DNA of 64,000 nt from Eledone cirrhosa (lineage: Eukaryota): assembly GCA_964016885.1 (NCBI GenBank), contig OZ024750.1, positions 33,418,001 through 33,482,000 of the forward strand. The letters are read 5' to 3'. The notes below the pieces were generated by a model, which saw nothing but the letters and a program-made list of their open reading frames with translations, was not told the DNA's origin and ran no database searches. This document shows positions 3,100 to 57,134 of the stretch, piece after piece (the stretch's first letter is position 1; each line of letters opens with the position of its first letter). Position numbers and translations under genes: made by a program.

Positions 3100-3565
3100 A
3101 TTACTGGATATTGAAATACAGAGCATAGAGTTAGATTCGCATGATATTGCTGGAGAGCTTAAAGACGAAATTGTTAGTGAATTTCTTTCGCAGGAGGTTA
3201 CAGAAGGAAGAGCCAGAGGAGGACAACAAGCCAAGACCTATATTAAGTAGATTTGTGATGACATAAACTACAATCCTTCTGATCTACTGAATATGATGAT
3301 CAATAGAATTGGATGGTGACAGAGAGTCAATGGTTTCCGTGCAGGTAGTGTGAACTAGCAGATTTGTGACGACATAAACTGCAATCTCTCTTTTGTGGAA
3401 ACTTACACAAGGAAGAGTTAGCAGAGGATTACAAAGCAAGACCTATATCAAGCAGATTTGTGACAACATAAATTGCAATCGTTCTGACCTGCCTAATATC
3501 ATGAAATTAGAATTGGATGGTGACAGAGATTCACAGGAGTCCATGCAAACAGCGCTATTGATTGA
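3100..3565 (+). mobile_element. Degenerate, internally duplicated RTE-type LINE 3' end
   Basis: Translates with stops to GRARGGQQAKTYIK.ICDDI...MINRIGW, and the block occurs twice; typical RTE C-terminal GR..TY..I..D..R..W pattern. Confidence 0.55.
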
Positions 3566-4440
3566 TTAAAATACAAAATATTTACCAGTATCCAAGCTTC
3601 AAGCATTCTACACTAGAAATTGCTCGACAAATTACAGCTTTTCAAAAACACCCTGAATTAAATACACACAAGCAACAAAAATCTGTTTAAATATTCATAA
3701 AACATTCGTTTGCTATCAGTGCCATATAAGGATATACTTCAACGTAAGGTTCAGTGCTTTATATATTCCAGTAGGTGTGTCTCATGTGTATATTACTATA
3801 ATTAGTTGTTAGTGAAAACATGATTTTACATTTCACAGTTGGTTTAGCTGGATATTGCTTTTATATTAACGAATTACGTTCTCATAATTTCAAACCACTT
3901 CAAACTGCCACATGCAAACTCAGGGAAAAAATTAACAGAGAGAATTTATGAATTTATATATTTTTTTAACTGACTTGAAATAAATCATCTTACACACGCA
4001 CGCACGCACGCACACATACACACACCTACACACACGCACACACATACACACACACACATACGCACATACACACACACACGCACATATATATAGTAGAGAA
4101 TTTAGATCGCTTTAATGTCAGAAGCACAAAAACCATGGCAATATATTTACATTTGTGTGTGTCATATATATATCTATATATATGTGTGTGTGTGTACCCA
4201 CATATATATGAAATATAATGTAATTCATGTCTTTTGCGCAAACATAAAATATTAGCCTCCGTGAGGATAGTAAGCTAAGAGGTTAAACAACAGGGTTTCA
4301 TCACTCCAGAGACAATCCATGTTGGGTTGGTCTGACTAATTTCTTGTTTAGAACTTCTGCGTTAATGATAAATTATAGAAACTGGGCCACAGCTATATAG
4401 CTCATCTAACGTATCAGCCGCTCCGGAAATCAGATATATG

Positions 4441-22177: not shown

Positions 22178-22250
22178 GTCCCTGTAGCGCAGCGGATAGC
22201 GCGCTGGACTTCTAATCCAGAGGCCGTGGGTTCGAATCCCACCAGGGATG
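22178..22250 (+). tRNA. tRNA-Arg-TCT: tRNA-Arg (anticodon TCT), intronless
   Basis: Complete 73-nt cloverleaf: acceptor GTCCCTG/CAGGGAT, D-stem GCGC/GCGC, anticodon arm CTGGA-CTTCTAA-TCCAG, T arm GTGGG-TTCGAAT-CCCAC, discriminator G. Confidence 0.95.
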
Positions 22251-32391: not shown

Positions 32392-33566
32392 CAGAGGTTC
32401 TCAAACTGTTTGGGCCAGCCAACCTCCAACCCCACCCCTACATGGCCACATAATACCCTCAGTGTCCTCCAACCCTATTTCCTGATAAACCTGCCTACAC
32501 GCAAATTGTAAAAAACATATAATAAATAAAATCGTTAATTTATATATAATAAATAATATAATATATATTATGTATAAATAAATATTATATATTTTTTATT
32601 TTACTATATATAATATGTATAATTTGAATATTTAATATACTATTATATCATATGTATACAATACTATATTATTTAATATACTATTATATCATATGTATAC
32701 AATACTATAATATTTAATATACTATTATATCATATGTAAACAATAATATAATATTTAATATATTATTATATCATATGTATACAATACTATAATATTTAAT
32801 ATACTATTATATCATATGTATCCAATACTATAATATTTAATATACTATTATATCATATGTAAACAATAATATAATATTTAATATACTATTATATCATATG
32901 TATACAATACTATAATATTTAATATACTATTATATCATATGTATACAATACTATAATATTTAATATACTATTATATCATATGTATACAATACTATAATAT
33001 TTAATATACTATTATATCATATGTATACAATACTATAATATTTAATATACTATTATATCATATGTATACAATACTATAATATTTAATATACTATTATATC
33101 ATATGTATACAATACTATAATATTTAATATACTATTATATCATATGTATACAATACTATAATATTTAATATACTATTATATCATATGTATACAATACTAT
33201 AATATTTAATATAGTATTATATCATATGTATACAATACTATATTATTTAATATACTATTATATCGTATGTATCCAATACTATAATATTTAATATACTATT
33301 ATATCATATGTATACAATACTATAATATTTAATATACTATTATATCGTATGTATCCAATACTATAATATTTAATATACTATTATATCATATGTATACAAT
33401 ACTATAATAATATTCACGTACATGGGCGGAACGACACCTACAGCTTTTCTGTTCCTCCCGACGTCCCTTTTTTCTCTACCGCCCCCACCGATCCCTTAGA
33501 CTTCAACACTCCCTGGACCTTCTCAACGCCCCACGGGGGCGGTAGCACCCACTTTGAGAACCTCTG
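32392..33566. mobile_element. hAT-type MITE (same family as 9955-10302) expanded by an internal minisatellite
   Basis: Terminal inverted repeats CAGAGGTTCTCAAA / TTTGAGAACCTCTG; 8-bp target duplication CTCTAGTT / CTCGAGTT; shared internal segments. Confidence 0.85.
32628..33410. repeat. 41-bp minisatellite, about 19 units
   Basis: aatatttaatatactattatatcatatgtatacaatactat repeated head to tail with few variants. Confidence 0.92.
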
Positions 33567-53519: not shown

Positions 53520-55882
<2,363 letters not shown>

Positions 55883-55937
55883 TATACGTATAATATAAAT
55901 ATATATACAATTGTATATACACACATATATATATATA

Positions 55938-56036
<99 letters not shown>

Positions 56037-56076
56037 ATATTTTTATGTATATATATATATATCTATATATATATAT

Positions 56077-56695
56077 GGAGTGAAAGTTTTAGTAAGTAAG
56101 TTAATTTTTTTAATTCTTTTTAAAATTTTCTTATTTTACGTCTTTCATATTATTGTTCTGCATCCTCCTGCATTGAACCACCTAGGTACTATGACATAAC
56201 TTATGTATTTGCTAGCATTAGCGTACATCTGTACGCATATGTTAGTAGATATACTAAATTCTCTATATTTATCTCCAAATTATTTATTTTGTTGAGCAAA
56301 CCTGCCAAAACCACTACTAATTTATTGGTGTGGTAGTAGGCTTCTGTCATCTTACCATCCCACTCCTACCGACTAGCCTCAGTGTCACGTGATTGATTCT
56401 TTAGAATCTGCCATTTGACCAGAGACAGCGAGCTTTTCAGTGCATGGAATCCAGTCCCCGCTAGCTGTTCCATCTACCGAATTATTATTATTTTTATATG
56501 AGTCCCCAGTGTCCGCGCATTGCCTGAAGACTTAGCTGAGAATAGACTCCCTGATGACGCAATGAATTCTCGACGGTTATATTACGTAACTGTCTTTATC
56601 CCATTGCAGAAACTAATTAGTTGGAGTGAAAATTTTAGTAAGTAAGTTAATTTTTTAAATTCTTTTTAAAATTTTCTTATTTTACGTCTTTCATA
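56077..56695 (+). mobile_element. Partial-tandem (pLTR/retrozyme-like) element, 546-nt unit plus ~73-nt repeat, in (TA)n
   Basis: ggagtgaaa(g/a)ttttagtaagtaag...tctttcatat at 56077 and 56623. Confidence 0.8.
56546..56627 (+). ncRNA. Type-I hammerhead ribozyme motif
   Basis: ACTCC-CTGATGA-cGCAATG...CATTGCa-GAAAC-TAATTA-GTT-GGAGT. Confidence 0.75.
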
Positions 56696-56742
56696 TATAT
56701 ATATAGTAAGGTACTCAATACTCGAACTGAGAAGAAGGAATC

Positions 56743-56793
56743 AGCTTCCTGATGATTTCTCACGAATGAAACAGTTGTAGTCCTGTAGAAGCT
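56743..56793 (+). ncRNA. Type-I hammerhead ribozyme motif (family Q)
   Basis: AGCTTC-CTGATGA-tTTCtcacGAAt-GAAACAG-ttgtagtc-CTGTA-GAAGCT; enclosed by inverted agtaaggtactcaatac / gtattgagtaccttact. Confidence 0.7.
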
Positions 56794-56890
56794 TTTTTAT
56801 ATTAAACATTTATACTCTGCTTTGTATTGAGTACCTTACTTACTTACTGTGGTTACTCCCGATTCAACCCGGGATTAACTTATAACTATA

Positions 56891-56956
<66 letters not shown>

Positions 56957-57134
56957 TTATATGTATATATATATATGTGTGTAGCGTGTTTGTATTCCTT
57001 AATATTGTATAAGCAAGATGTGTTAATTTAATATCTTTTTAATAGAATGTTTGTATTTCATATCATATGAAATGCTCTACTCATTTCATTTTTTAATTGT
57101 AGGATTAGTCACTAAGCTTGGGATATTTAAGTTA

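Follow-up and report, generated by a model that had tools for sequence, protein, structure and literature searches.

The locus lies in a window of 64,000 nt (the whole stretch of DNA that was analysed), in which a (TA)n tract stops at 56076 and GGAGTGAAA opens at 56077. A GTT triplet occupies 56620-56622 and GGAGTGAAA begins again at 56623, with the triplet and this second occurrence together spanning 56620-56631. The first-pass annotation had noted the same sequence, give or take one T, at both places and about 73 repeated nt in a 546-nt unit, and the window letters bear this out: a direct repeat of 75 nt (56076-56150 and 56622-56696) is 97% identical at a spacing of 546, with two positions that differ. 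Positions in the unit are numbered such that +1 is the base directly 3' of the predicted hammerhead cut, and the 5' boundary of the copy at 56077 can be read as +1 or -1, a T being common to both. The features of the locus are as follows.

55001..56076, no strand: (TA)n-rich target upstream of the insertion (sequence, repeat listing)
56077..56622, + strand: full 546-nt unit from predicted cut to predicted cut, +1..+546 (direct repeat, family units)
56077..56149, + strand: 73-nt repeat, upstream copy, with its 5' boundary read as +1 or -1 (sequence, direct repeat)
56262..56275, + strand: site B (about +186..+199), where the family has its second fixed 3' end, unused in the window copy (family end maps)
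56546..56627, + strand: predicted type I hammerhead of the minimal Penelope kind (sequence, motif scan, helix II covariation)
56622..56623, + strand: predicted cleavage site, crossed in the window copy (sequence, family end map)
56623..56695, + strand: incomplete downstream unit (+1..+73) that stops at site A and is joined to TATA (direct repeat, family 3' ends)
56705..56886, + strand: insertion of a second hammerhead family (motif scan, repeat comparison)
56887..56976, no strand: (TA)n downstream of the second insertion (repeat listing)

The hammerhead annotated at 56546-56627, with a predicted cut at 56622/56623, parses by eye and was matched by the motif scan at 56551; it is the one complete hammerhead motif of the window locus. 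Stem I consists of 5 bp, ACUCC (56546-50) with GGAGU (56623-27), while the core is made up of CUGAUGA (56551-57), GAAA and the GUU triplet. Helix II has 6 bp and a long extension, with a C/A opposition and then a G-C pair at its base, and loop 3 is palindromic, which is typical of Penelope minimal hammerheads as these are described in PMC4209133. The Rfam hammerhead models gave no match to the motif even at E<=10, which leaves it below the gathering threshold; its long helix II sets it apart from them. Covariation of helix II was seen in 174 fetched copies, with four fully paired versions present in 71, 30, 30 and 24 copies; the core is intact in 142/174 motifs and the palindrome in 158/174, in a set retrieved with an expression that prescribed part of the flanking letters. 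The covariation and the copy ends that fall at the site (see below) are indirect signs that the predicted ribozyme may cleave itself. Minimal hammerheads of Penelope-like elements are reported to cut poorly in vitro, slowly and in a dimer-dependent manner (PMC4209133).

The second hammerhead family sits in the same (TA)n tract, with its motif at 56743-56793, a predicted cut at 56787/56788, a short inverted arm at 56705-56722 and a 4-bp stem III; it has a hairpin at its terminus, and its fixed 3' end lies at about 56884. On first inspection this family yielded 3,355 candidates, and 1/11 of its joints fell at its cut, a sample too small to serve as a replicate. The window also holds an inverted repeat of at least 222 nt (54000-54793, 97% complementary, arms 350 nt apart), a tRNA gene with a UCU anticodon (22178-22250, Rfam 74 bits) and a 41-nt tandem repeat of 19 copies with 96% matches (32627-33409).

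The host genome measures 3.0 Gb and is rich in (TA)n, and the 546-nt family is abundant in it: the exact pattern of a +72 end joined to TATA was matched 1,756 times genome-wide (control 0), which puts the family at no fewer than 1,756 (TA)n-inserted copies. Subfamilies diverge down to about 74-80% identity, units measured from cut to cut are 519-551 nt long (n=61, duplicates included), and arrays or arms extend to at least 6 units (locus L207), so that at the level of the family tandem units each carry a type I hammerhead, a feature of non-LTR retrozymes. A first sample was drawn by fetching the first 100 of the 1,756 matches and dropping 3 duplicates. An adjacent inverted arm accompanied 67 of the resulting 97 arms, and 61 of these 67 inverted arms ended at +176..+205 (site B), with 3 at site A and 3 elsewhere. 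A second sample comprised all 44 matches of a variant pattern, 43 of which were parsed (L240 was dropped), and here 28/30 inverted arms ended at site B. The fixed ends of the family are thus its 3' ends, which lie ~116 nt apart at +72 (site A) and about +188 (site B), one per side, and in two-armed copies site B is the 3' end of the opposite arm. Two such ends, 5' truncation, partial tandems, an adjacent inverted arm and an AT-rich or microsatellite target are all features of Penelope-type insertions. Site A would be a start of reverse transcription, and the 73-nt repeat is accounted for by internal priming at +72 of the downstream unit, a fixed 3' start common to at least 1,756 copies. Overshoot on a circle is disfavoured as the source of the repeat by this fixed internal start. 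No strong fold was found at site A or site B. Between a site B end and the (TA)n there is often a stretch of (TC)n (e.g. in L003, L006 and L020), which suggests slippage at priming.

None of the fetched family copies had a reverse transcriptase (RT) + GIY-YIG frame attached, as an autonomous Penelope-like element would; they end in (TA)n or in inverted arms, and the family is putatively non-coding. Intact-looking RT + GIY-YIG frames are present elsewhere in the genome, several of them with hammerheads and (TA)n behind the frame. Across 50 of the 150 GIY-YIG loci listed (10,596 candidates), the 546-nt unit was never found as the terminal repeat of an RT + GIY-YIG locus, and there was no clear similarity to an autonomous pLTR. 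At one locus (L187:7010-7919) a tandem repeat of about 459 nt with a long-helix-II hammerhead lies 3' of an 844-aa RT frame, a design akin to that of the 546-nt family. A separate RT + GIY-YIG family (L189, L190, L193, L199 and L185) has a compact hammerhead 3' of its frame, with the motif near 3300-3600 in 9.5-kb loci, and its copies stop at two or more places ahead of (TA)n. As for traces left by RNA editing, 110 young segments showed no excess, with 33 A>G against 80 T>C changes on the sense strand.

The 5' boundaries of copies were then mapped against 15 subfamily references. Thirty loci that had been chosen by likeness to the full 619 nt were excluded from the end statistics, bar four that were also in the second sample. 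Plotted relative to the triplet, as had been proposed for the locus, most 5' ends are scattered along the unit at a background of about 0.002 stops per base, yet they pile up at +1..+21: this top window of the unit holds 37/158 ends in the first sample against 7.95 expected, with only 7 at -21..-1, and the second sample replicated the result with 13/71 against 3.5 expected. Those 37 stops occurred in about 172 passes, meaning that ~79% of passes cross the junction. Without the symmetric joints described below the pile-up is weak (14 vs 7.7, P=0.026 in the first sample; 6 vs 3.4, P=0.13 in the second), and arms without an inverted partner, the class to which the window copy belongs, showed no enrichment (2/30 vs 1.8 expected, and 0/13). 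A hand count of direct (TA)n junctions (100 of 116 rows) placed 9 at +1/-1 among the 47 loci listed, while any single upstream class reached at most 5 among the matches listed. At +5/+6 candidate junctions of the family were found at 13 places in 9 clusters; they are about as common as those at +1, and there is no sharp +1 peak. The boundary at 56077 had initially been read as evidence that the ribozyme was active when the element moved, and ends at the cut across the family support this, but the single locus is weak evidence, since 5' ends are mostly scattered, its own class shows no enrichment in the samples and junctions at +5/+6 are about as common. A small secondary cluster of 5' ends at +176..+196 (L043, L073, L083, L104, L124 and L231) falls at site B, as if one cDNA had stopped where the other enzyme was bound.

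Head-to-head joints between mirror-image arms were examined next. A palindrome of 8 nt lies on the 3' side of the cut, at +7..+14, and might create symmetric joints unaided; 84 such joints were found exactly there, compared with 7 at a 10-nt palindrome at -11..-2, just 5' of it, and 2 at a mid-unit palindrome. Few arm pairs therefore meet just beyond the cut, and an explanation of the pile-up by palindromes alone is disfavoured, as the longer one gave 7 joints against 84. A joint search designed after the blunt joint at L216 required both arms to reach +4 and to come within 24 nt of each other, and returned 57 places against 16 for a reversed-pattern control. Fifty were listed and 42 analysed, leaving out 2 duplicates, 2 joined via (TA)n, 2 without family sequence at mid-joint and 2 at the stem-III palindrome. 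The 84 arm ends of these 42 joints fell most often at +1 (23) and -1 (19), followed by +2 (11), +3 (8) and -2 (8); an end at -1 means a single additional base, whether templated or added, and this base is commonly a T on the sense strand. Both arms ended at +1/-1 in 15/42 joints, where a simple uniform grid as the null predicts 0.5 (P=2e-18), and with a local null over +4..-4, 42/72 ends lay on 2 of 8 positions (P=2e-9). The count of joints with both arms at the cut is 14/41 without the discovery joint L216 and 15/44 with the two omitted palindrome joints included. Some of the joints with both arms at +1/-1 hold unrelated filler between the arms.

These joints have their own flanks and come from several subfamilies, and in 39/42 cut-proximal joints one arm has an A end and the other a B end. 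Both arms stopped near the cut together more often than under independence (12/5/7/37, P=9e-5), the partner arm was the best or tied-best match in 13/28 cases, and at L051 all three units carry the same 11 private variants; paired stopping and the resemblance of arms suggest one template that was primed twice. Among measured cut joints, 19/28 have arms about 60-70 and 170-200 nt long, the lengths predicted for a cut monomer, while 9/28 have an arm that crosses one junction and stops at the next cut, like the window copy. In a variant seen at L256, L259, L266, L270 and L283, and inside arrays too, an additional G stands directly at the cut junction; it could be the fixed relic of a base added at a junction.

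Taken as a whole, the element is probably a hammerhead-bearing repeat that lives in (TA)n, has Penelope-type ends and is copied by a Penelope-like reverse transcriptase from linear RNA with a hammerhead-cut 5' end. Tandem arrays would be transcribed into multimeric RNA, of which the minimal hammerhead would cleave only some junctions. The enzyme would nick (TA)n and prime inside the unit on both strands, at +72 for one and near +188 for the other, and each cDNA would extend upstream until it stops at random or reaches the cut 5' end and runs off. Head-to-head joining of the pair would follow, either blunt, or with filler or an additional base, or once the ends have been trimmed back to nearby microhomology; alternatively, a single cDNA would be joined to the target. 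On this model the source of the window copy would be a dimer with its upstream junction cut and its downstream junction uncut, and there is reasonable ground to read its 5' end as a run-off rather than a chance stop. The many mirror-image copies that stop at the predicted cut are likely a DNA record of a ribozyme cutting the RNA that was copied, and the templates likely carried hammerhead-made 5' ends. The simplest reading has linear multimers in which only some junctions are cut, as slow, dimer-dependent minimal hammerheads would leave them, and it fits better than closed circles, which fit poorly because they have no end at +1. The first-pass annotation had taken the insert for the cDNA of a self-cleaved RNA, either a circle read slightly more than once or a linear repeat-to-repeat transcript, and the linear form is the one that agrees better with these data. 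Circles or nick-jumping may regrow arrays alongside. A bolder version, which I consider conceivable but doubtful, is that the joints are a germ-line record of cleavage to the nucleotide, in which one cut RNA was primed at two fixed internal places from the two ends of a break in (TA)n, both cDNAs ran off the same ribozyme-made 5' end and were joined blunt, and the enzyme could jump a cut junction, with arrays regrown from linear cut RNAs and no circle needed.

A different template was weighed against these linear multimers, namely a monomer, either a circle or a cut monomer held together by stem I, round which the enzyme rolls or across whose nick it jumps, with a stop at +1 when the junction is open and unjumped. 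It would suit the crossing of the junction in about 79% of passes, the arms of at least 6 units and the need of array regrowth for some route, and related retrozymes form circles according to PMC7229834. Unit-to-unit divergence within an arm equals that between arms (2.6% vs 2.9%, 61 loci), and 11 private variants of L051 are present in all three of its units, as expected from a monomer; a homogeneous linear multimer, however, accounts for the divergence pattern equally well, and the comparison does not separate linear from circular templates. Besides the missing end of a closed circle, an RNA that has been copied once should sit in a hybrid and be unable to refold, as Penelope-type reverse transcriptases are not known to have RNase H, yet 9/28 joints stop at the cut after crossing. 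A monomer template is for these reasons regarded as improbable.

Doubt could also attach to the ribozyme itself, as an RNA end at +1 might arise where transcription begins or through a nuclease of the host, or the enzyme might stall at the folded hammerhead, and cutting would be unneeded. Many ends do lie at +5..+21, just 3' of stem I, and cleavage was unneeded in vitro for a related protein, as PMC11167929 reports. A stall at stem I, though, predicts ends at +6 or beyond, whereas 42/84 ends were observed at +1/-1. The initiator-like sequence TTAGTT would be expected to start transcription at -4, where 0/84 ends fall. A capped RNA template is expected to leave an extra G, but what is commonly seen is a sense-strand T, and an origin of the ends without the ribozyme thus appears very improbable. 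For the window copy by itself, an ordinary random 5' truncation that happened to fall at +1 is a minority possibility that deserves mention: arms without an inverted partner are unenriched at the cut, the +1 excess among direct (TA)n junctions is modest, and the locus was chosen because of the coincidence. Set against this are the many exact +1 ends demonstrated in the family and a background stop rate of only about 0.002 per base. Random truncation bears on the window locus alone and leaves the family result unaffected.

Like metazoan non-LTR retrozymes, as characterised in PMC7229834 and bioRxiv 10.64898/2026.07.22.740005, the 546-nt family consists of dispersed monomers to multimers and putatively non-coding tandems with one type I hammerhead per unit, and the same two sources propose Penelope-like elements as the mobiliser of metazoan retrozymes. 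It differs by its 546-nt unit, against about 300 as the typical length given in PMC7229834, and by its Penelope-type minimal hammerhead; in addition, a circular form of it would be hypothetical, and where its copies end marks the predicted cut and speaks for open, linear templates, a finding not known from those accounts. With Penelope-like elements that have pLTR hammerheads, in the descriptions of PMC4209133, PMC8557442 and PMC11167929, it shares partial tandems, 5' truncation, an inverted arm, two fixed 3' ends and a (TA)n target, as well as a long helix II with an extra base and a palindromic loop 3. Unlike these elements, no reading frame was found attached in copies of the 546-nt family, and its 'tail' is about 116 nt compared with the 30-40 published there. 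The Penelope 'tail' is described as one A-type and one B-type end per insertion, with tandem and inverted structures (PMC8557442), and for the Anolis Penelope-like protein it was traced to two internal starts of reverse transcription, with nicking and extension on both strands in vitro (PMC11167929), a pattern that the A and B ends of the 546-nt family match. That protein, the one reconstituted system, could dispense with cleavage, and as far as PMC11167929 reports, its hammerhead site was not marked by the end of any RNA read, whereas DNA ends mark the predicted cut in the 546-nt family.

The in vivo role of minimal Penelope hammerheads is treated as an open question in PMC4209133, and PMC7229834 presents retrozymes as assumed to move via circles. 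In the openly available literature that was searched, no mapping of copy ends to the hammerhead cut was found for retrozymes or Penelope-like elements. Exact cut-site stops in many independent insertions suggest that cleavage occurred on real templates, at least part of which were open and linear. A genome sequence is all that the joint test requires for a family of this kind, and a substrate for in vitro work is already delimited by sites A, B and +1. A parallel exists in the HDV-like ribozyme at the 5' end of R2, where the cut sets the template's 5' end and is mirrored in the 5' junctions, with variable junctions formed by microhomology when the cut lies at the element end (PMC3774820); R2, in contrast to the 546-nt family, uses a different ribozyme and is an autonomous, site-specific element with a single arm, going by the same source. 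The 546-nt family would behave like a Penelope-dependent SINE-like element and has testable traits of metazoan non-LTR retrozymes.
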